Below, one piece after another: positions 1-18,202 of a DNA stretch of 64,000 nt. The position numbers and the translations under genes are program-made. This stretch comes from an uncultured bacterium (lineage in GTDB: Bacteria > Oederibacteriota > JAAXVQ01). Every line of letters begins with the position of its first letter. Position 1 is the first letter of the stretch. The stretch lies in assembly GCA_964604705.1 (NCBI GenBank), contig CAZSAP010000001.1:363500-427499 (forward strand), in the 5' to 3' direction. Below the pieces are notes generated by a model. It saw nothing but the letters and a program-made list of their open reading frames with translations. It made no database searches and was not told the DNA's origin.

Positions 1-1728
1 TGTGACGGTTGCGGTTGGGGAGCATGTGGCCGAGGCCGTCAATGTCGCGGATACTGTGCGCGTGGGTGTGACCGAGGGGGTGAACGTAACCGTGGCCGAT
101 TGCGTTCTCGTGGGTGTAGCGGTCGAGGAAACAGAGGCGGTGGGTGTGGCCGTCACGGTCGGCGAGACCGTAGACGTCATGGTTCGTGTTGGCGTAGCCG
201 TGATCGTACCGGTCGGGGTAGGTGTTCGGGTTACGGTGGCCGTCACAGTGCCCGTCGCAGACACGGTCGACGTAGCCGTAGGCGCCCCGCTTTGGACCGT
301 GACATTGTAGGAAAACATGGAGGAATTGTTATCGGAGGTAGACGCCTGCGCACAAACAAAATCGCCAGCCACCAAACCCGACGTGGGCCAGGTCCAGTTC
401 CCACTGCCATCGGCCATGACCGCGCCTAAATACCCTACACTTCCCCCTCTAAATCCCTCGCCTTGTTCAGCACGAAAAAGTTCAATCCGATCTCCGGCTC
501 CGGCCGTTCCCCAGACAGCAGATAGATTGGCAAACGAAATCACAGGTGCGGTTTTGCTGTTGTTGGCACCCAGGAGGAGTTCAATACCCGAAGCTGCAAA
601 CCCACAGATGGTATTGCCGTAGATGCCGTTGTTATCCACCCCAGACCCATTAACCATTATGCCGTAATTGGCGCCTACAATAAGATTGCCCTGCCCGGTT
701 CCAGGCAAACCCAGCAAGTTGTGATGGGAGGAGATATAGATCTTGTTGTTCTGCCCTGCAACCACAAAAGGAGCCGTCCCAGCCACATTGGTGCCAATAT
801 AATTTCCCACCACAGTGTTCCCGCTGCACGCCAAGGAAACATCCGTGCTCGCATGTCCGGAAATGACATTGCGCTCAAGTGTACTGCTACTTCCGCCGAT
901 TAACCCCGGACCATTAAATATGATGCCCCCTCCGGTGTTTTGCCGTATAAGACTGGAGCTGTTTATTCCAATAAGATTGTTTTGTACATAGGTAAAACTG
1001 CTGTTGTAGTGTGTGTACACGCCGACGCCGAGATTTCCACCGATGAGGTTGCCCATGCCCGCAACCGGCAAGCCAATATGGTTGAGTGTACCCGCAGAGA
1101 TATACACCCCGTGACTTTGATTGACGCAGAGATTTTCATTGGCGGTCATGCCGATTATGTTTCCGCATACACTGTTGCCGGAAGAACTCAGGTAGAGACC
1201 ATACGAATTGCTGTTGGCAATGATATTCCCTTCACCGGCATTTCGATCACCGCCAATTTGATTGTATCCCGTACTGGTTACCACCACTCCATAAAAGTTA
1301 CGATTGGTAGGTGCGGTGTTATTCCAATAGACTCCGAAGGTATTCCCCATAATTTTATTCCAGCCGCTTTGCACTGAAATCGCCGCCGAACCCGTGGCAC
1401 CAATAAGACAAAAACCGCGTACCGTGCTCCCATCGCTGCCGGGGCTGAGCTGAATGATGCAAGGACCCACGGAACCAAGCGTGGTACCCATGCCTTCCAT
1501 CACCACCGGGTCTGTAACCGCAAGCGTGGTATAGACCGTAATGGAATTGGTCAGGGCAAAGGCAATGGTCTGAACGCCCGTGGTGGAGTTGGAGGCGGCC
1601 ACGGCCTCGCGCAGTGTGCCCACACCTGAATCCTGCCTACTGGTGACGAGAAACGTTTCAGCCCAGACACTGGACAAAGAAAAAACCAAACACATTCCGA
1701 ACATTAAAATCCGAAGACTTTTTTTCAT
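1..1728 (-). CDS. Secreted CSLREA-motif / parallel beta-helix (PbH1) repeat protein, paralog of 16082..18202. The N-terminus is in the window; the C-terminal part runs off the window edge.
   Basis: Manual minus-strand translation from ATG (rc of cat at 1726-1728) is stop-free for 576 codons down to position 1. N-terminus is MKKSLRILMFGMCLVFSLSSVWA (signal peptide) followed by ETFLVTSRQDSGVGTLREAVAAS. Repeated G-N-x-I-x-G-N beta-helix repeats follow, and a Thr/Pro-rich linker begins at the window edge. It is absent from the ORF track only because it runs off the window. Confidence 0.72.
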   Translation of the reverse strand, partial: MKKSLRILMFGMCLVFSLSSVWAETFLVTSRQDSGVGTLREAVAASNSTTGVQTIAFALTNSITVYTTLAVTDPVVMEGMGTTLGSVGPCIIQLSPGSDGSTVRGFCLIGATGSAAISVQSGWNKIMGNTFGVYWNNTAPTNRNFYGVVVTSTGYNQIGGDRNAGEGNIIANSNSYGLYLSSSGNSVCGNIIGMTANENLCVNQSHGVYISAGTLNHIGLPVAGMGNLIGGNLGVGVYTHYNSSFTYVQNNLIGINSSSLIRQNTGGGIIFNGPGLIGGSSSTLERNVISGHASTDVSLACSGNTVVGNYIGTNVAGTAPFVVAGQNNKIYISSHHNLLGLPGTGQGNLIVGANYGIMVNGSGVDNNGIYGNTICGFAASGIELLLGANNSKTAPVISFANLSAVWGTAGAGDRIELFRAEQGEGFRGGSVGYLGAVMADGSGNWTWPTSGLVAGDFVCAQASTSDNNSSMFSYNVTVQSGAPTATSTVSATGTVTATVTRTPTPTGTITATPTRTMTSTVSPTVTATPTASVSSTATPTRTQSATVTFTPSVTPTRTVSATLTASATCSPTATVT

Positions 1729-1920
1729 GCATCCCCCTTGAATGAAAAAACACCCTCAAATCAAATCGCAGATTGTAGGTTAACATGTTAAGTAGATCAG
1801 ACTAAGATTTACTGTGCATACCCGGTGACCTGTCCTAAACCCCCACATACCGCTTGGACCTTCACCGCATAGCTTGTAGGTATAACGAGATTATATAGTG
1901 AAACAGTAGAGTTCACCTAA

Positions 1921-1969
1921 CAAAAAAAGCCTGTCTCCGCATCTCATTCCGAGCTACAGAGACAGGCTT
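1921..1969 (-). terminator. Rho-independent terminator downstream of the aminotransferase gene (minus strand)
   Basis: Stem aagcctgtctc (1927-1937) pairs with gagacaggctt (1959-1969). On the minus strand it is followed by TTTTTTT (rc of caaaaaaa at 1921-1928). Confidence 0.6.
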
Positions 1970-1997
1970 GAATCAACACACCACTACGCGCCTTCGG

Positions 1998-3296
1998 TTA
2001 TTTTTTCTGCAGTCCAGCTATGGCTGCATGCAAGTTTTGAAACAGCGTCTCCAAATCTTTGAGCGCTACGGCTGAGAACGCGAGGCGAATCAAACCCGCC
2101 AGCATGATCACGCCCGTACTGTAGGTTTTGATCAATTCTTTGCGCACCTCTTCGGCATCCACGCCCACGGGCTTCACGCACATGAAGTAACCGGAGTTGA
2201 ACGGCATGGGCTCGAAGCTGGTCTTATACTCCGGATGCTTGGCAAAAATCTCCTTGATGGCCTCATACCGCTTGCGCAAGATGGTGTACTTGACTTCCTT
2301 TTGCTTGGCATAGTCCGGGTGCTTGTAGGCTTCTAAAAGCATCTTCTGACCAATGCTTGAGCTGTTGGAGATGGCGCCGCGCACCACGCCGCCGGCTTTG
2401 TTTTCCATGGCCTTGAGTTGATCCGCCGTAGCGCCCTTGATGCCGAAGGTGATGAACCCAACCCGGAAGCCCCAGACGTAATCCTCTTTGGTGGGACCGT
2501 CCAACTTGACGGCCAACACGTTCTTATGCAGATCCGCCAAGGGCGCAAAAATCGACTCAAGGAAAATCCCCTGCTCGTACACCAAACCAAAATACGCATC
2601 GTCAATCAGCGCCACGATCTTCTTCCCGGCCTGAGCCGCCTTCTCAATCACCGCCACAATGGCTTTGGCCTCGGCTTCCGTCACAGTGTAGCCGGTCGGA
2701 TTGTTGGGGAAGTTTAGGAGCACCAGTTTCTTTTCACCCGGCTCATTGAGCTTCTGTTCCAACCCCGCCACATTGAACCCGCCATTGACGAACGTGGCAA
2801 ACGTGCTGAACTTGGCGCCGTAGGCTTCGCCAAAAATAAGTTCATAGTTGTCCCAATTCATATCCGGCAAGATGATAGTGTCCCCGGGATTGACAAACAA
2901 ATAGCCGGCCACACTTAGCCCGTGGGTCAGGGCGTTGGTGACCACCGGTAGGCTGGTTTCTTTGCCCTTGAGCGAAGGATTCTTCACACTCAGCATTTCT
3001 TTCCACTTGGTGCGCAGATCCGGCATACCAAAGCTGGGCATGTACAGGAATGACTGCGAGGGCAAGGTGGTCATGGCTTCCAGACACTCCAGGCAGAGCG
3101 GCGATCCGTCCTCTTCAAAGGCCGTGCCAATGGTGGCGTTCAGCTTCACATCCTTGGCTTCGGCCGATTGTCCGAGAATACCCTTGGATGGGAAATAAAT
3201 GGTTTTCCCACGTTCTGACAACACACTCATCGCGGCATTGTCCACCGCGCTGATTTTTTGGTTCAAGTCCTGTGCCAATGCGTTCAAATCTGCCAT
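1998..3296 (-). CDS. PLP-dependent aminotransferase, class I/II fold (LNFPNNPTG motif; DapL/aspartate-aminotransferase-like)
   Basis: 432-aa ORF with a GGAGG RBS 5 nt before the ATG. It has the aminotransferase class I/II hallmarks NPTG, GLVYE and KLDGPTKEDY. Confidence 0.75.
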   Translation of the reverse strand: MADLNALAQDLNQKISAVDNAAMSVLSERGKTIYFPSKGILGQSAEAKDVKLNATIGTAFEEDGSPLCLECLEAMTTLPSQSFLYMPSFGMPDLRTKWKEMLSVKNPSLKGKETSLPVVTNALTHGLSVAGYLFVNPGDTIILPDMNWDNYELIFGEAYGAKFSTFATFVNGGFNVAGLEQKLNEPGEKKLVLLNFPNNPTGYTVTEAEAKAIVAVIEKAAQAGKKIVALIDDAYFGLVYEQGIFLESIFAPLADLHKNVLAVKLDGPTKEDYVWGFRVGFITFGIKGATADQLKAMENKAGGVVRGAISNSSSIGQKMLLEAYKHPDYAKQKEVKYTILRKRYEAIKEIFAKHPEYKTSFEPMPFNSGYFMCVKPVGVDAEEVRKELIKTYSTGVIMLAGLIRLAFSAVALKDLETLFQNLHAAIAGLQKK

Positions 3297-3329
3297 AGGG
3301 CCTCCACGGAGTATTTCCGTTCATAGTAA

Positions 3330-3381
3330 AGGCGCCTCCTGGACCCCGGGGCAAAAACACCCCGGATACCAACAGGCGCCT
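3330..3381 (-). promoter_or_regulatory. Nested GC-rich hairpin in the 5' leader of the aminotransferase gene
   Basis: Outer stem aggcgcctcctgg (3330-3342) pairs with ccaacaggcgcct (3369-3381), 13 bp with 1 mismatch. Inner hairpin ccgggg-caaaaaca-ccccgg is at 3346-3365. A putative sigma-70-like promoter TTGACG-17-TATTTT lies just upstream on the minus strand. Confidence 0.35.
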
Positions 3382-3590
3382 ATAAAATTCGATGAATAAA
3401 ATATGGGTTTTTGGGCGATTCGTCAAGTATGTTTGAAACTTTTTCTCAGTGAGATAACTTCAGTATTTCAAGCCGAGTAATAATTAGTAGATGTACATTG
3501 TAATAAAACGGAATTATATTGCCTCTAACCAATATTGCAACCTTCTTTCGTCTGTGTCCAACTAATACTTCTATTGCTGAAAGGAATGAC

Positions 3591-4715
3591 ATGTCCTTTA
3601 AACTAAACCACTCCAGCCTATTTTGCTTAGCGCTACTGACCACGGCGCTGCTTGCATCTACTGCAACCTCAGGCGCCTTGGCTGCAGATAATGGAGGGGG
3701 TACAGGAAATACTTCACTAGCGCAAGCACTCCCTGCGACAAGACCGACCCCGGTTTCGGTGATCTTGCGCGACATAGCTATTACCAAAACCAGTGCACGC
3801 ACGGACTGGTTATGTGGAACGCTGGTCAACGAAAGCGAATCCTTTGTAGACACTGTGTTGGCTCGAATCGTGTACTGCGATAGTGAAGGAAACACCCTGG
3901 CCTATGAATACAAAAAACTTCTAGACTCCGCGGTGTTCACCTACCATGTGCCGCTCCAGCCCGGATACGCTCGTGAATTCAAAGTACCTTTAAAAAACGC
4001 ACCTAATTTATACAACGAAACTGTCGTGGACATCGCACGCGTAAAAAGCAAAGGATATGATGAATATTTTGTGCCCCTTGAGCCCAAGCTCGGCGCAGGT
4101 GTAGGCTGGGCCTACGGCAGCTGTGGAACCAACCTCGAATTGCTCATTGCCAATTTCTATGCTATCAGTCTAGGTGTAGGTAATGCTGCCTGGTTTGCGA
4201 CCGAACACTGGTCGGATGACGCTTCTGTCTACTCCTCTTCAACTATCACACTTCCTGTTTGCTACCTGCCGGGCACGCGCCTGTATATCGGTGATCCAGC
4301 CTCGTCTATACGCGGACGAATCGGATTCTTTTACGGTCCAACCCACTTATACGCAAAGCCCTACACTACCAAATATGAATGGATCATGGGATACCATCCC
4401 AGCCTTGGATTCCAATGGCGAATCTTCGAAAACGTGAGCTTGGACGTGGATGCGGAATGGGTGATTCCGCAGGAACACAGCAGAGACTACACCTACACAG
4501 AGACCCATACAGGTTGGGATTGGCACTACTGGCCGAACCCACCGCGCTCCTACACCTATACGGACAACCATACCCTACACACGGATTTTAAAAACTATTT
4601 CTCGCCATCGGTGGGCATCACCGTGCATTTTGGGGACCACGGAAAAATTTACGACGACATCAAGACTTCGCGTACCATTCACGTGCGCCAGTCAGAACCC
4701 TCAACCCAGCGCTGA
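3591..4715 (+). CDS. Hypothetical secreted protein (signal peptide; Trp/Tyr-rich C-terminal region)
   Basis: ATG at 3591 preceded by aaagga. N-terminus MSFKLNHSSLFCLALLTTALLASTATSGALA is signal-peptide-like. No motif recognised. Confidence 0.55.
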   Translation: MSFKLNHSSLFCLALLTTALLASTATSGALAADNGGGTGNTSLAQALPATRPTPVSVILRDIAITKTSARTDWLCGTLVNESESFVDTVLARIVYCDSEGNTLAYEYKKLLDSAVFTYHVPLQPGYAREFKVPLKNAPNLYNETVVDIARVKSKGYDEYFVPLEPKLGAGVGWAYGSCGTNLELLIANFYAISLGVGNAAWFATEHWSDDASVYSSSTITLPVCYLPGTRLYIGDPASSIRGRIGFFYGPTHLYAKPYTTKYEWIMGYHPSLGFQWRIFENVSLDVDAEWVIPQEHSRDYTYTETHTGWDWHYWPNPPRSYTYTDNHTLHTDFKNYFSPSVGITVHFGDHGKIYDDIKTSRTIHVRQSEPSTQR

Positions 4716-4737
4716 AAGCCTTACCCAGCGCTGGGTT
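4703..4737. terminator. Hairpin between convergent genes (3591..4715 + and 4746..7421 -)
   Basis: aacccagcgctg (4703-4714) pairs with cagcgctgggtt (4726-4737), a 12-bp stem. It overlaps the perfect palindrome cccagcgctggg (4724-4735). Confidence 0.45.
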
Positions 4738-4745
4738 TCATCCCT

Positions 4746-7421
4746 TTATCGCACCACCGCCACCTTGCTTTTCCCAATCTCTTTCCCGTCTTGCAAGACA
4801 CGCGCCACATAAATGCCTGGGGCGGTTGCGCGACAATTCCAAGCAACCAGGGTAATCTCGCCTTCGGCACCTTGGGCACTAAGCAGCGCCACGCGTTCGC
4901 CATGGACATTGTACAGCTGCACTTTCAGTTCCCCCGCCCCCTTACTCTGAATGGCAAAGGTCATTTGGTCGCGACCCGGATTGGGATATGCCAAAAATGC
5001 GCGTCCATGCAGATCTACGTTTATGCACGTGGGCGTGGTGGTGGTTGTCGGTGTCGTGGTGGCCGTGGCCGAGAGCGTCGGCGTCACGGTCACGGTGGGG
5101 GAAGGGGTCACGGTTTGCGTAATGGTGGGTGTCGCTGAAACGGTCGGGGTTACGGTCGGGGTCGGTGCCGGAACCAAGACATTCGCTGAAAACTCTGACG
5201 TGTTGCGCAGCGCATTCGTACTCAGTGCCGTAATCGATTCGCCGGGGTTCACGCCCGAAAAATTCAAAGTCCAGTTCGTACCCGTGGCTGTGGTGTTCCC
5301 CAGATACCGCAAACTACCACCGTTCAAGCCAGCGCTACGGCTCGCCGTAAAAAGTTCAATCGCATCTCCACTCTCACATGTCCCAGAAGCCTGATTCCAA
5401 ATCACCGAAGTGATTACCGGAGCAGACTTGTTTTGATTCCCACTGCTGTTTAAATTAATCCCTTTGAAGCTAAAGGCCGTGATGGTATTTCCCCACACAC
5501 CATTACCATCCACCGTCGCCCCTTCAATTCGAATTCCTGAAAATCCGCCTACAATCAAATTTCCAACGCCCGTATTTTTTAATCCCACATCATTTCCAAA
5601 AGCATTAGAGAGTAGGTGAATCCCAGATAAGCTCATGTTGGCGGTAGAGGGGCGACCGTCTGCGTGCACACCCATCCAATTGCCTACAATGGTGTTTCCG
5701 GTGCTATCCGTAATGATGATACCCGTGCCTTCGCCACAAATGATATTTTTCTCACTTGGCAATATCCCTCCAAACCGAGTGTACTGAGTGCGCGTCATCT
5801 GAACAACACTGTTTGTCCCATTGAGCACAGCAGGAATGGTATTTCCCGTGGCATCGGTCTGAAAATAATTGCCGCAAACCGTATGCCGAGTACCCATAAT
5901 AATCATGCCCGTTTGTGCACCATAAATCACATTGCGATACGCCGCCACCGCACCGCCGACCAGGGTTTGACTGGAATTCAGGTTTAAATAAATTCCGACA
6001 TTGTTGGTCATGGGAACCGTTCCCGTAGCATCCAGCCCAATCGTATTGCCGGTGATGGAATTGCCCGTCCCCGCATTGAGCATAATGCCAAAGGCTCCGT
6101 TCCCGGAAATGAGATTGCCATAGACATGGCTGCTATCTGTATTGGCTCCCCCAAATAAATTGCCATTTGAGCTAGAATATATACCGTAGTTAGAATTGGC
6201 CATAATGGCTGTTCCCGTGAGATTAACGCCAATTAAATTCCCGGCAATGGTGTTGCCACTGGCGCCAGAATCCATGCTAAAACCAAACCCGTTATTGCCA
6301 GAAATCACATTCCCTTCCAGTGCGCCCGGCGCGCGATTCCCCCCAATCAGGTTGGAACAAGCCGGACCCATGAGCAAGATACCCCGGTCATTGGGCATAG
6401 CCGTGTTTAGATCCGTCACACCAATGCGATTGTTTTGAACGCGGTTAAAATTAGCAGATGATCCGGCCTGAAACAAAATTCCAAGACCGTTTGATCCATT
6501 GCTATTCCCTGCGATGACGTTTCCAAATCCAGCCTGCGGCAAGCCGATATAATTCCCATCAGCCCAATTTCCCAGCACCACACCATAGTGATTTGGAAGT
6601 GCCGCTGTCTGTGTGATGTTTGGGCCCAAGAGGTTCCCACAGATAGTATTGCCTTGAGTCCCGGCTCCATTGAGGTAAACGGCCATAGACACATTTCCCG
6701 AAATGAGGTTACCCTCATCTAGCCCACTGCTGCCACGGTGCCCGCCAATCAAACATTGCGAGCTGCCGGACAAATACACGCCCGTGTTGTTGGCCATAGC
6801 TACCGTTCCTGTGGGGTCAGTGCCAATATAATTATTTTGAACGATCATGCGGGTTGAACTCAACGCATAAATGCCATAGTTGATATTTCCGGATATAACA
6901 TTGCCACCTGCAGGGGTTCCCACCACTACGTCTGATGCTGAATTTGTATAAACGCCGGTGTTGTTCCCTTTGCCTGTAGCGCCAGCCCAATTGGTGCCGA
7001 TGTGGCAGTTTTGAATGCGTACCGCGGTCTGGGCAACAATCGCTTGATTGCCGTCAATTAGTGCCACACCGTCGAGCACCGATCCTTCTGACCCTGGCAG
7101 GAAACCAATCAGATCTCTGCGCACAGCACCACTGCCAATCACCACTGTGCCACCGCCATTGATGGCGACTTGCTCTGAAACCGTGAGCGTGCTGCCAATC
7201 ACGGTAATGGAGTTGCCACCGGCGAGGGCAAACGTGATGTTGTGCGGGCCGGTGAGCGTATTGGCTTCATCCAGCGCGCCCCGCAAGGTGTTTATGGACC
7301 CACTCGGATCGACCACACTGGTTACGACATAGTCTTTGGAAAAGCACGGAACCGTCAGCAAACCTAGACCCACACCCATTATACAAAGCACACGATAAAA
7401 CCCAAACTTAGTCATCAACAT
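4746..7421 (-). CDS. Secreted parallel beta-helix repeat protein with Thr/Pro linker and T9SS-type C-terminal sorting domain (cargo paralog B)
   Basis: 891 aa. Signal peptide, then KDYVVTSVVDPSGSINTLRGALDEAN motif and many GN.I.GN beta-helix repeats. Linker [24 protein letters not shown]-terminal domain ends ...[30 protein letters not shown] lies 6 nt before the second in-frame ATG, so the true start may be at 7415. Confidence 0.8.
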   Translation of the reverse strand: MLMTKFGFYRVLCIMGVGLGLLTVPCFSKDYVVTSVVDPSGSINTLRGALDEANTLTGPHNITFALAGGNSITVIGSTLTVSEQVAINGGGTVVIGSGAVRRDLIGFLPGSEGSVLDGVALIDGNQAIVAQTAVRIQNCHIGTNWAGATGKGNNTGVYTNSASDVVVGTPAGGNVISGNINYGIYALSSTRMIVQNNYIGTDPTGTVAMANNTGVYLSGSSQCLIGGHRGSSGLDEGNLISGNVSMAVYLNGAGTQGNTICGNLLGPNITQTAALPNHYGVVLGNWADGNYIGLPQAGFGNVIAGNSNGSNGLGILFQAGSSANFNRVQNNRIGVTDLNTAMPNDRGILLMGPACSNLIGGNRAPGALEGNVISGNNGFGFSMDSGASGNTIAGNLIGVNLTGTAIMANSNYGIYSSSNGNLFGGANTDSSHVYGNLISGNGAFGIMLNAGTGNSITGNTIGLDATGTVPMTNNVGIYLNLNSSQTLVGGAVAAYRNVIYGAQTGMIIMGTRHTVCGNYFQTDATGNTIPAVLNGTNSVVQMTRTQYTRFGGILPSEKNIICGEGTGIIITDSTGNTIVGNWMGVHADGRPSTANMSLSGIHLLSNAFGNDVGLKNTGVGNLIVGGFSGIRIEGATVDGNGVWGNTITAFSFKGINLNSSGNQNKSAPVITSVIWNQASGTCESGDAIELFTASRSAGLNGGSLRYLGNTTATGTNWTLNFSGVNPGESITALSTNALRNTSEFSANVLVPAPTPTVTPTVSATPTITQTVTPSPTVTVTPTLSATATTTPTTTTTPTCINVDLHGRAFLAYPNPGRDQMTFAIQSKGAGELKVQLYNVHGERVALLSAQGAEGEITLVAWNCRATAPGIYVARVLQDGKEIGKSKVAVVR

Positions 7422-7494
7422 CCTCCGGTAAAAGTAACAATCATGCTAAACGTGAGTTCAATTCTGAACTTCTCGCTATTATTTCGTGTCCACG

Positions 7495-7573
7495 TTTGTC
7501 ATTTCGAGAGGCGTGAGCCTCGAGAAACCTTGTTTTAAAAGCGAGATCTCTCGCTTCACTCGAGATGACAAAC
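7495..7573 (-). promoter_or_regulatory. Conserved structured element (copy 1) upstream of cargo gene B
   Basis: On the minus strand, TTTGTCATCTCGAG...CTCGAAATGACAAA forms a 13-bp closing helix. It encloses the gcgaga-tc-tctcgc hairpin and the GAGGC-UCAC-GCCUC hairpin. It shares the 12-mer TTGTCATCTCGA and helix geometry with 9601..9671. Confidence 0.4.
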
Positions 7574-7658
7574 ATGGTTATCAATTCCAAGAGAACCGCT
7601 AGGCATGCCCTTACGGATTTTCTTTTGCATTTTTTATTCACTTTCCTTTTATAATTGT

Positions 7659-9796: not shown

Positions 9797-11665
9797 CTAT
9801 TTAACCACCGCAACTTTACTCTTCCCAACCTCTTTGCCATCCAACAGAATACGTGCGATGTAAAGTCCGGGTGCCACGCTAGAGCAATCCCAGACAACCA
9901 CCCCACGCCCCGCAGGCAGTGAGTCTGTGACCACACCCACCCGCTCCCCGTTTAAATTGGTCATTTGGATTTTCACCTGTACGGCCCGATCCGGGTTCAG
10001 GAGAAACTTCACCTGCTCGCGCCCCGGGTTAGGATACGCTAGGAAAAGCTTACCCGTTAAATCGACGTCCTCCAAAGCACTGCGCGGTGTTGCGGTTAAG
10101 GTCGCGGCGGCTGCACCCGAGGTGGGTGTCGGAGTGGCTGTGGGTGTGCTGGTATGGGTCAGTGTCGCTGTCAAGGTAGGTGTAACTGTAGGCGAAGCTG
10201 TGCTTGTAGGTGTGACTGTACTTGTGGGCGTATACGCCAAGCTGCAGCCCATGGTGTTTGAGTGCCAGGTCTGGTACACACCGTTGCGGGCGCGTACGCG
10301 GTAATAATACGTCCCTTGACTGGTCAACCCCGTGACCGACCACGAGGTAGCGTTCCCCACCAGGCTATTTCCCCAGCCGCTGACCAGATTGATAAACATG
10401 TTATCCGTAGCCACGTCCAGGGCATAATCCGTGGCGCCAGCAACGGATTGCCAGTTGGCGGTAAACGCGGTTGGGCTTTGCACAGTAGGCGCCAGCGCCA
10501 CAGGCAAGGTGCCGTTATATTCCACGCTGCCTTTGTCTGCCGTGTTCACCCGCAGAAACCCGCGCGCATCCACAAAGGGTACACTTCCGCCGGTGACTGG
10601 ATCGACGGCGAAGCTGCTGCTTGCAGGCAAACATGTCTGCACATACCCGCCGTAATCAGCCAACGGTGCTAAATTCGCAGGCACCTTGCTCGCTTCCGTG
10701 CCCACCACGTCTCCGGAGGTCCAGGTGTACGTATATGCCCCAGTAGAACCCACCAGATTATTTCCCAAAGACGTAAAGACTCCGCTAATTAATAAAATGT
10801 CGGAATTGCCTCCGGTTTGCACTTGATTGCCAGCCACGATGCAAGATTGCATACTGGTTGTACACGTATCGAAAGCAATCCCCCCAATACCATTGGTCGT
10901 GTTGTTGCCGGTAATGGTACAGTGATTCATCGTCGCTGTACTAATCCCGAAAAGAATGGCGCCGTTACTCTGCGAGTTATTTCCATAGATCGTAACATTG
11001 CTGCAGATGATGCTCCCCATGCTTGTACAGATCGCGCCGTTATTTTGAGCAGAATTATTGCTGATCAAAGAATTGTAAAGCTCTGTTTGCGCATTGTAGG
11101 CAAACAGACCTCCTCCAGAGGTGTTCGAACTGCCACTTCGCGTGGCGTTGTTGTTTACCACCTGGCAGCGGTTTAGGGTCAACGTGCCTTGGTCATTGTA
11201 AATACCGGCCCCCGAAGCACTCACAATGCTGGCCACCGCGTTGTTATTGGCCACGCTACACTGATCCAGTGAAAGCGCCGCACCTGAGTTGATGCGGATG
11301 CCCGCGCCATTGCTGTCTGTGATTTTGCCATTGCAAACCGTCATTCCTGAAAGTACGCTCGCGCCCGAAGTAACATCGAATACCCGGAACAAATTGCCGC
11401 CACTCACATAGAGCCTGGATACACCAGGACCCACGATGGTCAAACTTTTGTTGATCGTCAGCGTGGACCCTAAGGTAATGGTAGCGCCGGCGGGTAGGTT
11501 AAAATCGATGGTTCCTCCGTTCGCAGAATCCGCTATGGCCTGACGCAATGTCCCAGCGCCGGAATTCGCATTGCTGGTAACCGTAATGGTCGCCGCCTGG
11601 GTAGAGACCACCGACAACACCCACACCCCTAAAAACCATCCTAATCCCACATGTCGCTTAATCAC
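9797..11665 (-). CDS. Secreted CSLREA-motif beta-helix protein with FN3-like domain, Thr/Pro linker and T9SS-type C-terminal domain (cargo D; tandem duplicate of E)
   Basis: 622 aa with a GTG start preceded by AAAAGGAG and a 6-nt spacer. The N-terminal ~90 aa are almost identical to E ([31 protein letters not shown]). Motif YALDVATDNMF...YYYRVRARNG is FN3-like. C-terminus ends ...KVAVVK. Confidence 0.8.
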   Translation of the reverse strand: MIKRHVGLGWFLGVWVLSVVSTQAATITVTSNANSGAGTLRQAIADSANGGTIDFNLPAGATITLGSTLTINKSLTIVGPGVSRLYVSGGNLFRVFDVTSGASVLSGMTVCNGKITDSNGAGIRINSGAALSLDQCSVANNNAVASIVSASGAGIYNDQGTLTLNRCQVVNNNATRSGSSNTSGGGLFAYNAQTELYNSLISNNSAQNNGAICTSMGSIICSNVTIYGNNSQSNGAILFGISTATMNHCTITGNNTTNGIGGIAFDTCTTSMQSCIVAGNQVQTGGNSDILLISGVFTSLGNNLVGSTGAYTYTWTSGDVVGTEASKVPANLAPLADYGGYVQTCLPASSSFAVDPVTGGSVPFVDARGFLRVNTADKGSVEYNGTLPVALAPTVQSPTAFTANWQSVAGATDYALDVATDNMFINLVSGWGNSLVGNATSWSVTGLTSQGTYYYRVRARNGVYQTWHSNTMGCSLAYTPTSTVTPTSTASPTVTPTLTATLTHTSTPTATPTPTSGAAAATLTATPRSALEDVDLTGKLFLAYPNPGREQVKFLLNPDRAVQVKIQMTNLNGERVGVVTDSLPAGRGVVVWDCSSVAPGLYIARILLDGKEVGKSKVAVVK

Positions 11666-11725
11666 TCGCTACTCCTTTTGGCTATGCCGATTTTCTATTC
11701 TCTTTTTTCTATTGTCTTTTAATGT

Positions 11726-13630
11726 CTAGCGTACGACCGCCACCTTGCTCTTCCCGATCTCTTTGCCGTCCATGGAGATGCGAGCCAGATAAAGTCCGGG
11801 TGCCACGCTACGGCAATCCCAGGTTATTGTCCCTTTGCCGGCTGGAATGTCACCCATAACCACGGCTACCTGTTCCCCATTTAGATTGAATAAAACAATT
11901 TGAATCTGCACCGCATGCTCTGGGTTAAACATAAACCGAATCTGCTCGCGCCCCGGGTTAGGATACGCTAGGAAAAGCTTACCCGTTAAATCGACGTCTT
12001 CCAAAGCACTGCGCGGTGTTGCGGTTAAGGTCGCGGTTGGCACCGGGGTCTGTGTGCTCGTAAACGTCGCAGCGGCTGCACCTGAGGTGGGTGTTGGAGT
12101 TGCTGAGGGTGTACAGGTTTGGGTCAGTATCGCGGTCAATGTCGATGTAACTGTAGGCGTCGCCGTGCTTGTGGGTGTCACGGTGCTCGTAGGCGTGTAG
12201 GCTAGGCTGCATCCCGTCGTGTTCGAGTGCCAGGTCTGGTACGCACCGTTGCGGGCGCGAACGCGGTAATAATACGTCCCTTGACTGGTCAACCCCGTGA
12301 CTGACCACGAGGTGGCATTGCCCACCAGGCTATTGCCCCAGCCACTGACCAGATTGATGAACATATTATCCGTGGCCACGTCCAGAGCATAATCCGTGGC
12401 CCCAGTCACCGCCTGCCAGTTGGCCGTAAACGCGGTTGGGTTTTGCACCGTGGCAGGTAGAGCCACGGGTAATGTGCCGTTGTATTCCACGCTGCCTTTG
12501 TCCGCGGTGTTCACCCGCAGAAACCCGCGCGCATCCACAAAGGGTACACTTCCACCGGTGACTGGATCGACGGCCAAACTACTGCTCGCGGGCATGCATG
12601 TCTGCACATACCCGCCGTAATCAGCCAACGGTGCTAAATTCGCAGGCACCTTGCTCGTTTCCGAGCCCACCACGTCTCCGGTGGTCCAGGTGTATGTATT
12701 TGCCCCAGTAGAACCCACCAAATTGTTTCCCAAGGACGTGAATGTTCCGTCAAAAAAAATGTCGGAATTGGCACCGGACTGCACTAGATTGCCGGCCACA
12801 CTGCAAGACTGCAGGGTGGTTGTGCAATTAAAGCAAGCAATTCCCCCAACACCATTTGCCGTATTGTTGCAAGTAATGGTGCTATGATCCAAGGTCACTG
12901 TGCTGCCCGCGCAATACACGGGGCTGTTAGTCTGCGAATTATTTCCGTAGATCGTGACATTGCTGAAGGTTAATGTCCCCGAATAACCATTAATCGCACC
13001 GCCAATTCGGGCAGAATTATTGATGATCGTAGAATTGTAAAGCGCTGTTTGCGCAAAATATGCAGACAGTCCTCCCCCAAACGTATTCGGACCGGAAGTG
13101 GTGCGCGTGACGTTGTTGTTCGCCACCTGGCAGCGGTTTAGGGTCAGCGTGCCTTGGTCATTATAAATGCCACCTGCTTCAGCGTCCATACCGCTGGCAA
13201 CCGTGTTGTTATTGGCAATCGTGCACTGGTCCAGGGAAAGCGCCGCGCCTGAATTGATACGGATGCCTGCACCATTGGTGTCAGTGACCTTGCCATTGCA
13301 CACTGTCATTCCGGAAATAAAGCTCGTACCCGAAGTAACGTCGAACACCCGGTACAAATCGTTTCCACTCACATAGAGCCTGGACACACCTGGGCCCACG
13401 ATCGTCAAACTTTTGTTGATGGTCAGTGTGGACCCTAAGGTAATGGTAGCGCCGGCGGGTAGGTTAAAATCGATGGTTCCTCCGTTCGCAGAATCCGCTA
13501 TGGCCTGACGCAATGTCCCAGCGCCGGAATTCGCATTGCTGGTAACCGTAATGGTGGCCGCCTGGGTAGAGACCACCGACAACACCCACACCCCTAAAAA
13601 CCACCCTAATCCCGCATGTCGCTTATTCAC
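11726..13630 (-). CDS. Secreted CSLREA-motif beta-helix protein with FN3-like domain, Thr/Pro linker and T9SS-type C-terminal domain (cargo E)
   Basis: 634 aa with a GTG start. The same AAAAGGAGTAGCGA-GTG upstream context as D. The C-terminal domain has diverged from D's. Confidence 0.8.
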   Translation of the reverse strand: MNKRHAGLGWFLGVWVLSVVSTQAATITVTSNANSGAGTLRQAIADSANGGTIDFNLPAGATITLGSTLTINKSLTIVGPGVSRLYVSGNDLYRVFDVTSGTSFISGMTVCNGKVTDTNGAGIRINSGAALSLDQCTIANNNTVASGMDAEAGGIYNDQGTLTLNRCQVANNNVTRTTSGPNTFGGGLSAYFAQTALYNSTIINNSARIGGAINGYSGTLTFSNVTIYGNNSQTNSPVYCAGSTVTLDHSTITCNNTANGVGGIACFNCTTTLQSCSVAGNLVQSGANSDIFFDGTFTSLGNNLVGSTGANTYTWTTGDVVGSETSKVPANLAPLADYGGYVQTCMPASSSLAVDPVTGGSVPFVDARGFLRVNTADKGSVEYNGTLPVALPATVQNPTAFTANWQAVTGATDYALDVATDNMFINLVSGWGNSLVGNATSWSVTGLTSQGTYYYRVRARNGAYQTWHSNTTGCSLAYTPTSTVTPTSTATPTVTSTLTAILTQTCTPSATPTPTSGAAAATFTSTQTPVPTATLTATPRSALEDVDLTGKLFLAYPNPGREQIRFMFNPEHAVQIQIVLFNLNGEQVAVVMGDIPAGKGTITWDCRSVAPGLYLARISMDGKEIGKSKVAVVR

Positions 13631-13681
13631 TCGCTACTCCTTTTGGCTACGCCGATTTTCTATTCTCTATTTTCTATTGTT

Positions 13682-15850
13682 CTAGCGAACAACCGCCACC
13701 TTACTCTTCCCAATCTCTTTCCCATCTTGCAGCACGCGCACCAGATACAAGCCTGGTGCAACTGTGGTACAGTTCCATATCACGCTGTTAACATTATCTC
13801 CCGTGACTTGAGCGCTTAAGGTGGCCACGCGTTCGCCGCTCATGTTGTATATCTGAATCTTCGCCTCACCCTCGCCTGTGGGCTGAAACGCCAAGGTTAT
13901 CTTGCCTTTACCCGGATTCGGATACGCCACAAGGGTTTTGCCTTTCAGATCAAGTCCACTGCGTTCCAAGGTCGCTGTCAGCGTGGGCGTGTTGGTGGGC
14001 GTCAGCGTTACAGTTGACGTAAGGGTAATGGTCGCCGAAACCGTCTGCGTGGCGGAGATCGTCGAAGTCGCTGAAATGGTCGGGGTAGATGTGAAGGTCA
14101 TCGTGGGCAAGACCGGCGAAACAGTCGAGCTGGGTGTCGCGGTCGGTGTGACCGAGGCCGTGGCCGACTGGGTCCGAGTAGGTGTGGCCGTAGAGGTCGG
14201 AGTGGCCGTAACCGAGGGTGTGGCCGTAGTGCTCGACGAGGGCGAGGTGGCCGTGGCGGTCGGTGTGGCCGTTATGGTCGCAGTCCGCGTGGCCGTATAG
14301 GTAGATGTGCTCGTGCGTGTCGGTGTGGAGGTACGGGTAGGGGTTTGTGTAATCGTGGGCGTAGCCGTAGGTGTATAGGTTACCGTTGACGTCAACGTCG
14401 GAGTCGCCGTGGTGGTGGGCGGCGTTCCGGTGGTTAAGCAAGAAATCGTGTTGGAGTGATAGGTCTGTTCCGTTCCATTGAGGGCGCGCACCCGGTAGTA
14501 ATAGGTCGTGCCGGAAAGTAAACCGGTCACGCTCCATGAGGTGGCATTGCCTACCAGACTGTTCCCCCAGCCACTGACCGGGCTGGTAAATCCACTGTCT
14601 CTGGCCACGTCCAAGGCATACCCTTGCGCGCCGATGACCGCGTTCCAGTTGGCCGTGAAGCCGTTGTCCCCCGTGCCCGTTGCCGCTGTGGCTACTGGCA
14701 GCGTGCCGCTGTATTCTGCCGAGCCCTTGTCCGCAGTGTTTACGCGGAGGTATCCGCGGGCATCCACCCACGAGGCGCTGCTGCTGGCTGGGTCAATGGT
14801 GGAACTACCAACGTTGGGCAGACACACGGGGACATACCCACCGTTGTCCGCGAGACTACCCAGCTGGGCATCCTGTGGGCTGCCCGAAGTACCGATTAGG
14901 TCACTGGCGTCCCAGGTGTAGAGATACGTTGCATTCCTGATCCCCACGATATTATTTCCCAGAGACGTGAGACTGCAGGACATAAATAAAGTGTCTTCGT
15001 TCCAACCGCCACCATTGAGGTGCAGATTTTGAGCCACCACTGTATTCTGGAGGAAAAGCATCGAACCAATCATGACCATTTCCGTCGAGTCGGCCCGGTT
15101 CCCGGTGATGGTGCAATTGATCGCCGCCAAGGTACACGACGAGTAGCCCAGCAAAGAACCGTATCCAGTGGCTGTATTGTTGGAGGCTGTTACATTGACC
15201 AGCGTAGCGGAACTGCCCGATTGGGCAATCCCCGACCCCCAAGACCCGGCATTCTCGGAGATAGTGCTGTTGTATACATACAAGGGGCCGGTGCTGTAAA
15301 TGGCACCGCCATAGGAATTGCCCGAACTAAACGGAATAGCATTGCTCCGTACCGTACAATGGTTCAAGGTCAATGTCCCACCCCGGTTGGCAATACCGCC
15401 TCCACATATCCCTGAAACCAGATCCACCGCGCGATTGTATTGGATCGAGCACTGTTCCAATGTCAGCGTGGCTGCACTGCTCATATAAATACCTGCACCG
15501 CCGTTGGTTGTGTCCGTGGTCCGCCCATGGGCAATGGCGAGTCCGACAAGGGTATTACTGCCACCGGTAACCGCCAAAACACGTACTGTGTCCTGCCCGC
15601 TGAGAATGAGCTGCGTTGCCCCCGGTCCGACCACGGTCACACTCTTGGTCAAGGCCAGTGTCGAACTCAGGTTAATGGTGGCAGGATATGAAAGACTAAA
15701 GGTAATGACATCACCATTGCTCGCATCAGCCAACGCTTGCCGCAGCGTGCCCGCCCCGCTGTCCGCCGAACTGGTAACCGTGATGGTGACCGCCTGGGCC
15801 GATGCTGTTAAATACAATCCCAAACTCAGACTTACCAGAATACGTTTCAT
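13682..15850 (-). CDS. Secreted CSLREA-motif beta-helix protein with long Thr/Pro/Ser linker and T9SS-type C-terminal domain (cargo F)
   Basis: 722 aa. Signal peptide [20 protein letters not shown], then [27 protein letters not shown] ~130-aa T/P/S linker follows. C-terminus ...[25 protein letters not shown]. Confidence 0.8.
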
Positions 15851-15954: not shown

Positions 15955-15997
15955 GTAAAAAAAAAAACGCCCTTTTTGGAAATCCCAACGGGGCGTT
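15955..15997 (-). terminator. Rho-independent terminator downstream of cargo gene G
   Basis: aacgccc (15966-72) pairs with gggcgtt (15991-97). On the minus strand it is followed by an 11-T run (rc of the a-run at 15950-15965). Confidence 0.6.
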
Positions 15998-16081
15998 TTC
16001 CGAACGTTAAAACACTAGGCCGACCGCCGGTCGCCTCTACGTTTTTTTAAACTTCACTTTCCATTTTCGATTCTCGATTTT

Positions 16082-18202
16082 CTATCTTACCACCGCGACT
16101 TTGGTCTTCCCAATCTCTTTCCCATCCTGCACAACGCGCACCATGTACAAGCCCGGTGCGATGGACCCACAGTTCCATATCACACTGGCTGTGGTTTCAC
16201 CGCTTACCTGCGCGTTTAAGGTTGCCACACGTTCGCCGCTCATGTTGTATATCTGTATCTTCGCCTCGCCATTACTTGTAGGCAAAAAGGCGATGGTGAT
16301 TTTTTCTTTACCTGGATTGGGATACGCTAAAAGTTTTTTACCAAAAAGATTTAAGCTTGATCGCTCAGGTGATGCTGTGGGCGTGGGGGTCACAGTTGAA
16401 GTCGTTGTGGTAGTAGCAGTCTGAGTAATGGTTGCCGATACTGTGAGTGTGGGCGTGACTGTAGCAGTTATTGTGTGCGTAGCGGAATGAGTGTAGGTCG
16501 CTGACACAGTCAGCGTGGGCGTAACGGTTGCTGAGGCTGTGGCTGTAGGCGTACCCGTAGGTGTCATGGTCGTGGTACTGGTACGCGTGGCGGTTGGACT
16601 TGAGGTCCGGGTTGGTGTAGCAGTAGGCGTGGCCGTGGCACTGGGCGTGGGTGTGAATGTTGGCGTCACGACCATGACATTGGTCGAATAACACGATGTG
16701 CCATACTGGGATTGATTCGTGGAGAGCGCACACACATTGTTCCCAGCAGAAAGCCCGCCTGCCACATTTACCGCCCAGGTATAAGGCCCGGTTCCACTAC
16801 TTGAGGTGGTGTATCCAAGTAACCTCAATGCACCGCCTTGATCGCCCCCAGTGCGATTGGCTTCTGCTGCATACACTTCCACATACTCTCCAGGATAATA
16901 CGACGTCCCCTCCACCCGAGTCGGTTGTGCAAGCGTGATCACCGGACGCATGGATGAAGGACGGATATTTTCATTATAGACATAGGGGTTGGTGTTGCTG
17001 CCCGCAAACCCGCATTGCGTGTTGCCGTAAAACTGATACAACCCCGTGCTCGGCGGTGCATACAATTGGGTGTTGTAAAGCAAATTGCCCACACCGCCGT
17101 TGGGTGTTCCGATGATGTTGCCGGTCGTGGTATTGTAAAAAGTAATATAACTAAAATCGCCAATCCCTTGTGTCCCGGCTACGTTGGTGCCAAAGCAATT
17201 GCCAACAACTGTATTACTGCTCGCTCCCGTATAAAAAATGACATGAGTCATATTGCCGGTAAATATATTTTTATCAAGCACCGGGTTGCTTCCGCCCACC
17301 AAATTCCCGGTTCCCTTGTCGAAAACAACGCCGTATTGGAACGGATGGATACCATTCGTACTGCTGATGCCTATCAAATTGTTTTGGATATAATTGTTGT
17401 TGCTGGGGTTGTAGCCCCCGATTCGAATGGCAGTTCCACCAGTGTTGTCCGAGTGGCCAAAAACATTACCCCACCCAGAGAGCGCAATACCCACCCGGTT
17501 GTTCCCGGTTCCGTCCACCATAAGATCAGCGCTAGCCATGCTAAACGTGCCATTGTTGATGGCAACAGACTGGTCAGAACTTAATCCGAATATATTTCCC
17601 GCAATCACATGATTGCTTCCATAGGCCATTACACCATAATTGGAATTGCCTGAAATGACATTACCCTCGCCTGCCAAGCGATCGCCGCCAATGAAAATGC
17701 GGTTGCCATTACCAATGTTGATTCCAATATAATTGCCCTGCCCACTGGAGTTATTCCAATCGGTTCCAATGGCGCAACGCATGATGCGGACATCACTTAC
17801 TTCATTTTCGATATCTATGGCATATAAAGAATGCACCAAGGCCATACCCGTCAGCGTGCTGCCCGAAGAATCATAACCTCCAGATCCAGTGTATTTGTCC
17901 ATGAAAAATATCGCAACGCTCGAAGCGCTGCGGGAGCCTATGGTTACTCCATTGCCTTCAATAATGACTGTATTTGTAATGACGATTTGGCTATAAACCG
18001 TGATGGAGTTGGGCACCTGGCAGACAATGGTCTGCACGCCCGTGGTGGTGTTCGAGGCGGCAATGGCCTGACGCAATGTTCCTGGACCGCTGTTTTCCCG
18101 GCTGGTGACCACGAACGTCTCTCCCCAGGCAGCCTGAGTACATATCAACAGTACGAGCATGGCAATCCAACTCAAATTCATTTTCGCCTTCATCATCTTC
18201 AA
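16082..18202 (-). CDS. Secreted CSLREA-motif beta-helix protein with Thr/Pro linker and T9SS-type C-terminal domain (cargo G; paralog of the edge gene at 1..1728)
   Basis: 706 aa. MNLSWIAMLVLLICTQAAWGETFVVTSRENSGPGTLRQAIAASNTTTGVQTI. C-terminus ...[59 protein letters not shown]. Confidence 0.8.
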   Translation of the reverse strand: MKMMKAKMNLSWIAMLVLLICTQAAWGETFVVTSRENSGPGTLRQAIAASNTTTGVQTIVCQVPNSITVYSQIVITNTVIIEGNGVTIGSRSASSVAIFFMDKYTGSGGYDSSGSTLTGMALVHSLYAIDIENEVSDVRIMRCAIGTDWNNSSGQGNYIGINIGNGNRIFIGGDRLAGEGNVISGNSNYGVMAYGSNHVIAGNIFGLSSDQSVAINNGTFSMASADLMVDGTGNNRVGIALSGWGNVFGHSDNTGGTAIRIGGYNPSNNNYIQNNLIGISSTNGIHPFQYGVVFDKGTGNLVGGSNPVLDKNIFTGNMTHVIFYTGASSNTVVGNCFGTNVAGTQGIGDFSYITFYNTTTGNIIGTPNGGVGNLLYNTQLYAPPSTGLYQFYGNTQCGFAGSNTNPYVYNENIRPSSMRPVITLAQPTRVEGTSYYPGEYVEVYAAEANRTGGDQGGALRLLGYTTSSSGTGPYTWAVNVAGGLSAGNNVCALSTNQSQYGTSCYSTNVMVVTPTFTPTPSATATPTATPTRTSSPTATRTSTTTMTPTGTPTATASATVTPTLTVSATYTHSATHTITATVTPTLTVSATITQTATTTTTSTVTPTPTASPERSSLNLFGKKLLAYPNPGKEKITIAFLPTSNGEAKIQIYNMSGERVATLNAQVSGETTASVIWNCGSIAPGLYMVRVVQDGKEIGKTKVAVVR

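Follow-up and report, generated by a model that had tools for sequence, protein, structure and literature searches.

The T9SS has been described as restricted to Bacteroidota or to the FCB superphylum (PMC10202324, PMC7463736, PMC11205867). In RgpB, the C-terminal domain (CTD) has seven antiparallel strands (PMC4804311), and the SprA-PorV translocon of 8GLJ contains a trapped substrate CTD (PMC10994853); the binding partner of type B CTD proteins is PorP/SprF (PMC11205867). The locus described here lies in a 64-kb window (the whole stretch of DNA analysed) from Candidatus Goldiibacteriota (Goldbacteria), an uncultured phylum that is not part of the FCB group in NCBI taxonomy; its glnA is 93% identical to that of a Goldiibacteriota MAG, and Firestonebacteria and Elusimicrobia are the reported neighbours of the phylum (PMC7031533). 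The locus is probably, though far from certainly, a variable gene array for modular, Sec-exported surface proteins that are exported via a T9SS-type apparatus.

Gene content and layout of the array

Seven minus-strand ORFs (g1-g7) fall within positions 1..18202 and one plus-strand gene, g8, is separated from them by 18 kb, an arrangement given in the initial annotation and borne out by the ORF coordinates (Table 1). The array is not contiguous, as g1 is split from g2 by an aminotransferase gene and an outer-membrane protein ORF. The database entry for g7 starts at ATG 18196 and is 704 aa long.

Table 1. Positions of the array genes and of the two genes between g1 and g2
Feature	Position	Strand	Remarks
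g1, class A beta-helix surface protein	1..1725	-	translation; 3' end cut by window edge
Aminotransferase gene	1998-3296	-	between g1 and g2
Outer-membrane protein ORF, 374 aa, function unassigned	3591..4715	+	between g1 and g2
g2, class A, 891 aa	4746..7421	-	CTD 4749-5012
g3, DUF285/PARCEL-repeat protein, 639 aa	7659..9578	-	Thr/Pro linker; CTD 7662-7925
g4, class B, 622 aa	9797..11665	-	CTD 9800-10063
g5, class B, 634 aa	11726..13630	-	CTD 11729-11992
g6, class B, 722 aa	13682..15850	-	CTD 13685-13948
g7, class A, 706 aa from TTG 18202	16082..18202	-	CTD 16085-16348
g8, class A, 979 aa	36554..39493	+	CTD 39227-39490

The single architecture originally ascribed to these genes holds for the signal peptide, linker, and CTD, but the N-terminal motif and beta-helix are missing in g3. 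All eight genes encode a signal-peptide-like N-terminus (basic n-region, hydrophobic core, and AxA-like site, read by eye) and a Thr/Pro/Ser-rich segment of 43-170 aa, and a ~88-aa 'AYPNPG...KVAVVR' domain forms the C-terminal end of all seven complete genes (g2-g8); the 3' end of g1, the expected CTD site, is outside the window, and CTD counts therefore cover g2-g8. The window contains 473 stop-to-stop ORFs of >=60 aa; of these, exactly these seven genes matched a CTD regex, and seven of the eight array genes (all but g3) and no other ORF matched one for the N-terminal motif. A CTD HMM returned the same set as the CTD regex.

Passenger classes

The passengers are of three types: class A, class B, and that of g3. 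The reading of all eight as paralogous beta-helix proteins stands for seven, which belong to the right-handed parallel beta-helix group (PF13229/PF05048, pectin-lyase-like fold), yet these form two divergent classes that have in common a cap at the N-terminus (31-42% identical over ~80-110 aa), the linker, the CTD, and little else. In class A (g1, g2, g7, and g8), an Ig-like domain comes after a long beta-helix of NosD-like type, and mutual identities are 33-37% (g1 vs. g7, 36%; g1 vs. g2 and g8, 33-34%; g2 vs. g8, 37% across 749 aa). Within it, g1 has a signal peptide and the motif 'LVTSRQDSGVGTLREAVAASN', and its Thr/Pro linker extends to the window edge; g2 matches PF05048 NosD at 47.9 bits and has a degenerate N-terminal motif and a Thr/Pro linker; and g8 matches PF05048 at 38.5 bits and TIGR03804 weakly.

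Class B (g4, g5, and g6) combines a shorter beta-helix with choice-of-anchor Q and fn3 domains, ordered in g4 as cap motif, beta-helix, choice-of-anchor Q (331-384), fn3 (~391-466), linker, and CTD. The choice-of-anchor Q model NF041518 (cut-off 25) scored 35.9, 36.5, and 32.6 bits in g4, g5, and g6, respectively, and had no match in class A or g3; g6 also matches PF13229 (36.2 bits) and has a Thr/Pro linker of 170 aa. The NCBIfam 'choice-of-anchor' families co-occur with varied C-terminal sorting signals and mark surface proteins, and class B is placed in a surface-protein context because it carries choice-of-anchor Q.

The product of g3 was rejected as a beta-helix protein: it lacks the 'VTS..DSG.GTLRQAI' motif and consists of DUF285/PARCEL repeats (PF03382, 434.6 bits; TIGR02167, 179.2 bits), with the unit 'FNQ.I..WNT..V..M..MF' occurring about 15 times and 75/150-bp repeats at 8320-8819 (TRF). 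It scored under the Mbov_0838 cut-off (362.6 vs. 500). The CSLREA family label given earlier to the array had to be dropped, as TIGR04214 (CSLREA_Nterm) matched neither the full proteins at E<=0.01 nor six isolated N-terminal segments even at E<=10; the array motif is G-[ST]-L-R-x-A, without Cys.

The beta-helices may bind or cut glycans outside the cell. Whether by a T9SS-type or another export route, they could be secreted carbohydrate-active enzymes (of lyase, epimerase, hydrolase, or dehydratase type) and not adhesins or coat proteins, a reading that we regard as a substantial possibility without leaning toward it. Their nearest solved profile relatives are enzymes, namely VexL, a capsule depolymerase, and 8wm1, '3-dehydroshikimate dehydratase' (E 4.8e-23, the match extending from the cap through the helix into the C-terminal Ig-like domain), and a capture of cellulose-binding polysaccharide degraders recovered Goldbacteria (PMC7031533). 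However, the helix columns conserved in 59 class A homologues are almost exclusively Gly, Asn, and Ile; conservation of polar residues is confined to R42, C141, and D146 ('GCxIGTDW') and includes no acidic or basic cluster; 8wm1 does not have this motif; and CAZy-type family models match none of the genes.

C-terminal domain and export

The domains initially called T9SS-type were confirmed by the curated models (cut-offs of 23 bits for TIGR04183 and 27 bits for PF18962): TIGR04183 scored 28.5, 31.5, 36.3, 39.1, 40.8, and 30.9 bits in g3 through g8, and the g2 CTD passed PF18962 only (28.1 bits). By sequence, the CTDs of g2-g8 are thus assigned to the T9SS type A sorting domain family, that of g8 being the most divergent (31-42% identity to the others). 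Searched against the PDB, the CTD profile matched the translocon-trapped F. johnsoniae substrate CTD 8glj_D (E 0.005, or 7.5e-5 with the full-length profile) as well as 8glk_D and the 9whd tail, and the AF2 model of g7, the sole protein modelled, places seven strands at residues 622-702 with pLDDT >90 and a helix at 7-19 at the N-terminus.

Each protein is built from a signal peptide, a passenger, a disordered Thr/Pro stalk of 43-170 aa, and a seven-stranded beta-sandwich type A CTD. After Sec export it would fold in the periplasm, where its CTD would be recognised by an outer-membrane T9SS-type apparatus including PorV/PorQ-family barrels, and the passenger, at the end of its stalk, would be shown on or set free from the cell surface. 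It is improbable, in our estimation, that the CTD is merely a generic Ig-like module for envelope attachment or oligomerisation that carries no export signal, the proteins reaching the surface otherwise or staying periplasmic like NosD. Weak cross-matches of the CTD to FlgD_ig and to Ig-like domains of the S-layer protein Sap are consistent with such a module, as is a 64-kb window with no T9SS core gene. Nevertheless, the T9SS sorting-domain models score best and above curated cut-offs; the CTD is strictly C-terminal in every complete gene, after a disordered linker; it is common to unrelated passengers and strongly constrained by purifying selection (dN/dS 0.08-0.24); and PorV/PorQ-family genes adjoin CTD cargo on contigs that probably belong to a relative.

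None of the genes in the window belongs to a T9SS core family (SprA/Sov, PorK/L/M/N, PorU, PorV, PorT, and others); this and a phylum outside the FCB group are evidence against T9SS-type export. The earlier statement that the window holds no secretion machinery is correct for these core genes but needs qualifying for ORF 3591-4715, whose rare family is tied to PorV/PorQ by fusion and neighbourhood. This ORF starts with ATG at 3591 in a frame that opens at TTG 3519, is convergent with g2 (31 bp stop-to-stop), and encodes a signal peptide, a beta-sandwich (57-154), and an 8-stranded OmpA/OprF-like barrel (163-346), with no NCBIfam or Pfam match. It was rejected as a member of the PorV/PorQ family, as the ~326-position NF033709 barrel model is not matched and its homology to PorV/PorQ-family proteins is limited to their C-terminal extensions. 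Its own family has 12 representatives, of which at least six are linked to PorV-like barrels: four by fusion, one as the adjacent gene, and one as a fragment of a fusion.

PorV/PorQ-family barrels with this module are encoded immediately downstream of CTD-bearing cargo, an order seen in four independent loci, with the module fused to the barrel gene in L090, L093, and L176 and present as the next gene in L175; a fifth, L172, has cargo and barrel without the module. Two of the cargo-barrel loci come from a metagenome containing a close relative, and their barrels scored 114-135 bits with NF033709, above the subfamily cut-off (90) but below the equivalog cut-offs for PorV (250) and PorQ (220). 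With this relative, the contigs share sample and composition (r 0.87-0.93); their assignment to this Goldbacteria relative is by sample, composition, and one class A homologue, not by a binned genome. The pairing recurs in unrelated metagenome contigs. These observations make ORF 3591-4715 a candidate accessory component with a putative link to the array.

They also bear on the idea that a full T9SS is absent and that an outer-membrane pathway of a reduced or different kind serves the CTD proteins, based on PorV/PorQ-family barrels and the ORF 3591-4715-type module, with cargo and barrel often encoded as a gene pair. The five loci, the ties of the module family to PorV-like barrels, and the position of the phylum outside the FCB group all fit this idea, as does the finding that ~150 kb of related contigs with Pfam labels contained no core T9SS family besides PorV/PorQ. 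We nonetheless consider it unlikely. PorV acts in known T9SS as a shuttle and not as a translocon (PMC10994853); the sequence sampled amounts to ~5% of a genome, too little to show that SprA or PorKLMN is absent; the paired cargo has a 'KIFNN...KIAVTK' CTD that differs from the 'AYPNPG' variant of the window; P0158, the closest homologue of ORF 3591-4715, has no CTD gene visible alongside; and ORF 3591-4715, convergent with g2, is not co-transcribed with it. Export by a T9SS-type apparatus is kept as the preferred reading.

Array history and comparison with known systems

The array has a mosaic history, in which genes were duplicated in tandem and CTD modules at their 3' ends were swapped while purifying selection acted. 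The tandem duplicate g5 is 80% identical to g4 at the amino acid level and 81% at the nucleotide level, and the duplication unit is evident as a match of 9804-11806 to 11733-13762; their passengers have a dS of 0.45, yet their CTDs are only 69% identical with a dS of 1.0. Conversely, the CTDs of g3 and g4 are 93% identical (dS 0.58) despite unrelated passengers, and exchange of linker-CTD modules between neighbours is invoked for this reason; the array grew by the g4/g5 duplication together with such exchange between adjacent genes. The locus lies at a synteny break and is variable: around glnA in three relatives, the nitrogen-regulation genes of one side are syntenic and the array side differs, and a g6 orthologue (72% identical) is located close to glnA in a relative (L084). 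The initial description of the locus as accessory agrees with this variation, but fast-evolving was an overstatement, given dN/dS values of 0.06-0.34.

The cargo-barrel pairs of the five loci have their nearest analogue in the type B pairs of Flavobacteria (such as SprB-SprF), in which a cargo gene is likewise followed by a dedicated T9SS-associated outer-membrane barrel gene; unlike in SprB-SprF, the barrel belongs to the PorV/PorQ rather than the PorP/SprF family and bears extra OmpA-like modules, and the CTDs resemble type A. Of this pairing, the window holds only the stand-alone module ORF. The repeats of g3 resemble the PARCEL/DUF285 surface proteins of Mycoplasma and Listeria, although g3 is no lipoprotein and has a Thr/Pro stalk and a T9SS-type CTD. 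Like the beta-helix proteins of the array, PDB 8WM1 and VexL (6FI2) have a beta-helix and a cap motif at the N-terminus (in 8wm1, 'GSLRWAIEQANANPG'), and 8WM1 also has the C-terminal Ig-like domain, but both are 16-19% identical to the array proteins and lack the stalk and CTD, and their function cannot be transferred to the array beta-helices.

The entire class A architecture is found in homologues from the sister lineages FCPU426, Firestonebacteria, and KSB1 (P0057, P0069, P0075, and P0080). In these, a 'SGAGTLRQA' cap and beta-helix are followed by an Ig-like domain with 'K.APVI', a Thr/Pro linker, and a CTD; they are named in databases 'T9SS type A sorting domain-containing protein' or 'right-handed parallel beta-helix repeat-containing protein'; class A is just 28-37% identical to them, and we know of no experimental study of these proteins. 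Among choice-of-anchor Q proteins, g4-g6 are cases in which the T9SS-type CTD serves as the anchor throughout. Like Bacteroidota type A cargo (RgpB and the 8GLJ/8GLK substrates), the array proteins combine a Sec signal, passenger, linker, and ~80-aa seven-strand CTD, and class A shares with RgpB an Ig-like domain ahead of the CTD; unlike that cargo, they have very long Thr/Pro stalks, and a host outside the FCB group. Compared with Bacteroidota T9SS, the array is known from its cargo genes, with no core genes in the 64-kb window. The locus is a new member of a familiar kind, here with T9SS sorting tags in a phylum from which no T9SS is known.

Architecture and passenger classes of the array

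The first 18.2 kb of the window contained seven minus-strand open reading frames (g1-g7) encoding predicted surface proteins of the kind described in the initial annotation, and an eighth (g8) was located downstream on the plus strand. A signal-peptide-like start and a Thr/Pro/Ser-rich stretch of 43-170 aa were present in all eight genes, and the seven complete genes all ended in a C-terminal domain (CTD) of ∼88 aa with the pattern ‘AYPNPG...KVAVVR’. Among the 473 ORFs of the window, matches to regular expressions for the N-terminal motif segment (‘VTS..DSG.GTLRQAI’, hereafter the cap) and for the CTD were confined to the array genes, and a CTD HMM recovered the same set. The array is not contiguous: an aminotransferase gene and a plus-strand ORF (ORF 3591-4715) separate g1 from g2.

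All-against-all BLASTP divided the array genes into three groups: class A (g1, g2, g7, and g8), with 33-37% identity over 450-750 aa; class B, in which g4 and g5 shared 80% identity and g6 48-49%; and g3, separate from both. Outside the linker, the CTD, and the cap, which covers ∼80-110 aa at 31-42% identity, classes A and B had little in common. Pfam identified NosD in g2 and g8 and Beta_helix in g6, and NCBIfam identified a choice-of-anchor Q domain in g4-g6, where an fn3 domain follows it; g3 instead consisted of DUF285/PARCEL repeats (434.6 bits) and contained neither a beta-helix nor the ‘GTLRQAI’ cap. Thus, the genes initially annotated as eight paralogous beta-helix proteins are real, but g3 is of a different kind and the others split into two classes; the ‘CSLREA’ label was also abandoned, since the CSLREA_Nterm model had no match to the isolated caps, even at E ≤ 10. 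When the array was scanned for Rfam families, promoters/terminators, and tandem repeats, only the g3 PARCEL repeats were returned.

A class A profile matched PDB 8wm1, deposited as 3-dehydroshikimate dehydratase (E = 4.8e-23), with homology spanning the whole passenger (g7 ∼10-500), from the cap (‘GSLRWAIEQANANPG’) through the helix to the C-terminal Ig-like domain; a literature search found no publication on 8WM1. VexL also matched the class A profile (E = 8.9e-9) and was matched by the class B cap. In the helix, the columns conserved among 59 class A homologues were nearly all G, N, or I, with R42, C141, and D146 as the only conserved polar positions; therefore, both an enzyme and an adhesin were retained as readings of this fold.

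Features of the window and of related loci (L-numbers)
Sequence	Feature	Coordinates	Strand	Remark
Window	g1	1-1725	minus	Cut by window edge ahead of its C-terminus
Window	Aminotransferase gene	1998-3296		Between g1 and g2; NF006388, 526 bits
Window	ORF 3591-4715	3591-4715	plus	Between g1 and g2; no assigned family
Window	glnA	18398-19819		Adjoins g7
Window	Nitrogen-assimilation cluster	18398-30721		
Window	Amt copies with downstream sequence	21989-23665; 29044-30721		70% nt identity
Window	Inverted-repeat arms	34787-34825; 34966-35004		39 nt, perfect, 140 nt apart
Window	g8	36554-39493	plus	
Window	620-aa membrane protein	39570-41432	plus	Starts 77 bp past g8
L084	Phage-tail-collar genes	11639-13273		Three in tandem (PF07484)
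L090	Variant-tail cargo	7292-9910		
L090	Fused/adjacent locus	10001-12022		
L093	Variant-tail cargo	6852-9992		
L093	Fused/adjacent locus	10001-11959		
L093	Gene called as 8,692 aa	20705-21959 onward		Start of gene
L175	Variant-tail cargo	163-1602		
L175	Fused/adjacent locus	1599-4024		
L176	Variant-tail cargo	263-1303		346 aa
L176	Fused/adjacent locus	1367-3727		

Genomic context and history of the locus

The glnA product was 93% identical to that of a Candidatus Goldiibacteriota (Goldbacteria) MAG and 78% identical to that of a candidate division FCPU426 MAG. The NCBI contig from which the window's proteins come (523,349 bp) also encodes a ninth class A paralogue (P0052), beyond the window. 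Records from FCPU426, Firestonebacteria, and KSB1 showed the full class A architecture as well, and some were already labelled ‘T9SS type A sorting domain-containing protein’. A metagenome, JGI sample 3300047643, contained a close relative of the organism: the two glnA genes fell into one 90% cluster, and g3, g5, and g6 each had an orthologue there at 56-72% identity.

Among the relatives, the nitrogen-regulation flank of glnA was syntenic and the opposite flank differed, which bears out the description of the array as an accessory locus. One relative (L082) had no CTD genes within 10 kb; in a close relative (L084), the glnA-adjacent position held by g7 in the window was occupied by three phage-tail-collar genes, followed by a g6 orthologue, and orthologues of g3 and g5 formed a separate array in L088. 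The contig of the closest MAG (L001) stopped 280 bp beyond glnA. The same sequence was also present in an independent assembly from short reads (L081; Logan ERR3839026, 3.8 kb), which corresponds to ∼1970-5786 of the window and broke within g2 and just ahead of g1. Evidently, the paralogues break assemblies, and arrays of such genes are therefore probably under-represented in MAGs.

Within the array, g4 and g5 are tandem copies of each other, with 81% nucleotide identity over 2 kb. CTD similarity tracked adjacency rather than passenger class, with identities of 93% for g3/g4, 77% for g6/g7, and only 69% for g4/g5. The g4/g5 pair had a dS of 0.45 in the passengers and 1.0 in the CTDs, and the CTDs of g3 and g4 had a dS of 0.58; the 3′ modules have therefore been exchanged. 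The locus thus exemplifies diversification of a surface repertoire, in which one sorting cassette has moved among unrelated passengers. It had also been called fast-evolving, but dN/dS was 0.06-0.34 throughout, highest in the beta-helix; the pattern is one of purifying selection in which the helix evolves faster, as opposed to rapid adaptation, and positive selection on the passengers was rejected (dN/dS ≤ 0.34). Separately, the 346-aa protein of L176 passed directly from a class A cap (‘ETFVVTSSEDSGPGTF’) into a Thr/Pro linker, which is followed by a PPC domain and a CTD; it resembles a class A gene whose beta-helix has been lost, which would be a further sign of module shuffling.

The nitrogen-assimilation cluster beside the array, also syntenic in the relatives, comprised glnA, a GAF-sigma-54 activator just over the NifA equivalog cut-off (532.4 vs. 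528.85), two Amt genes, a BBP2 porin, and an amino-acid permease. The intergenic region that separates an MFS transporter gene from a GH130-like gene contained a perfect inverted repeat; Rfam had no match to it or anywhere else in the window. The membrane protein that follows g8 belongs to the sulfatase/LtaS/phosphoethanolamine-transferase family, and the idea that it modifies the envelope or attaches cargo is purely speculative.

A rare ORF family linked to PorV/PorQ-family barrels

ORF 3591-4715 encodes a 374-aa protein, predicted as a beta-sandwich followed by an 8-stranded OmpA-like barrel, that matched no family model. An ordinary homologue search recovered one protein, and an exhaustive search of 1.84 billion representatives recovered 12 relatives. 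A three-sequence profile of the family matched the C-terminal extensions of four database proteins (P0160, P0161, P0164, and P0165; E = 1e-17 to 1e-41), whose N-terminal ∼320 residues matched the PorV/PorQ family model NF033709 at 114-135 bits (cut-off 90) and fell under the PorV and PorQ equivalog cut-offs. P0164 and P0165 originated from JGI sample 3300047643, and the tetranucleotide composition of their contigs correlated with that of the close relative (r = 0.87 and 0.93).

Immediately upstream of each of the P0164 and P0165 genes was a gene for a large secreted protein whose tail is CTD-like; this cargo was a class A homologue in L090 and an LVIVD-repeat protein in L093. The order cargo, PorV/PorQ-like gene, ORF-like module recurred in L176 as a fusion and in L175 as adjacent separate genes, with the PorV-like gene present as two ORFs; a cargo-PorV/PorQ pair without the module (L172) emerged as a by-product of a metagenome scan with the CTD alignment. 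Thus, members of the ORF family are free-standing, fused, or adjacent to PorV/PorQ-family barrels, and the fused or adjacent cases were always just downstream of CTD cargo; it is fusion and neighborhood that tie the family to these barrels. The tail of the paired cargo was not ‘AYPNPG’ but a variant, ‘MKIFNN.I...IYDxNG...GxY...KIAVTK’, which often follows a PPC domain and had weak or marginal TIGR04183 scores (16-25 bits); this tail may represent a separate CTD subclass. On the 217-kb contig with the P0165 fusion (L093), the gene called as 8,692 aa had no family match in its first 418 aa.

In the window, ORF 3591-4715 is convergent with g2 and not co-transcribed with it. A conserved adjacency of the ORF to CTD genes was rejected, as the contig of its closest homologue had no visible CTD gene. 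A role of the ORF for the array is only a lead. It would be a rather unlikely scenario that Goldbacteria and their neighbors display CTD proteins through a pathway other than the Bacteroidota T9SS, in which cargo genes are paired with PorV/PorQ barrels carrying or adjoining the sandwich-barrel module and ORF 3591-4715 is a free-standing module serving the array.

The C-terminal domain and the predicted secretion route

In published descriptions, T9SS and its CTD signal are a trait restricted to Bacteroidota or to the wider FCB superphylum (PMC10202324, PMC7463736, PMC11205867). NCBI taxonomy places Goldiibacteriota outside the FCB group, and Firestonebacteria and Elusimicrobia are their reported neighbors (PMC7031533); no literature was found on T9SS in Goldbacteria, FCPU426, Firestonebacteria, or Elusimicrobia. 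As initially annotated, the window contained no secretion machinery, in so far as core T9SS genes are concerned: the sizeable genes at 18-64 kb all had housekeeping assignments, including glnA, the NifA-type sigma-54 activator, two Amt, the BBP2 porin, permeases, the LtaS/sulfatase-family protein, CstA, and KdpA, and none belonged to a T9SS family. A CTD array in Goldbacteria therefore raises the question of its secretion route. With at least nine CTD-type surface proteins on one contig, and PorV/PorQ-family genes adjoining CTD cargo in relatives, either T9SS is spread wider over the bacterial tree than stated or a simpler machinery uses the sorting domain. On the best reading, this Goldbacteria genome carries an accessory array for modular surface proteins that are tagged with the CTD and exported by a predicted T9SS-type route; the proteins themselves are ordinary, and the interest lies in the lineage and in the PorV/PorQ-linked ORF family.

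The assignment of the C-terminal domains to the T9SS type was upheld by TIGR04183 in g3-g8 (28.5-40.8 bits, cut-off 23) and by PF18962 in g2 (28.1, cut-off 27). A homologue search with the CTD alone returned 25 short gene fragments and nothing else, and the metagenome scan with the CTD alignment returned generic T9SS CTDs of other organisms at ≤38% identity. A profile of the seven CTDs matched the PDB entries 8glj_D and 8glk_D as well as the 9whd tail; in 8GLJ and 8GLK, a substrate CTD is caught in the SprA-PorV translocon of F. johnsoniae (PMC10994853). An AlphaFold model of g7 (59 homologues as input, pLDDT 84.6) predicted that residues 27-410 fold as a beta-helix and 419-500 as an Ig-like sandwich, and that a disordered stalk at 520-610 leads to a terminal sandwich (620-704) of seven strands, the same number as in the CTD of RgpB, which folds as seven antiparallel strands (PMC4804311).
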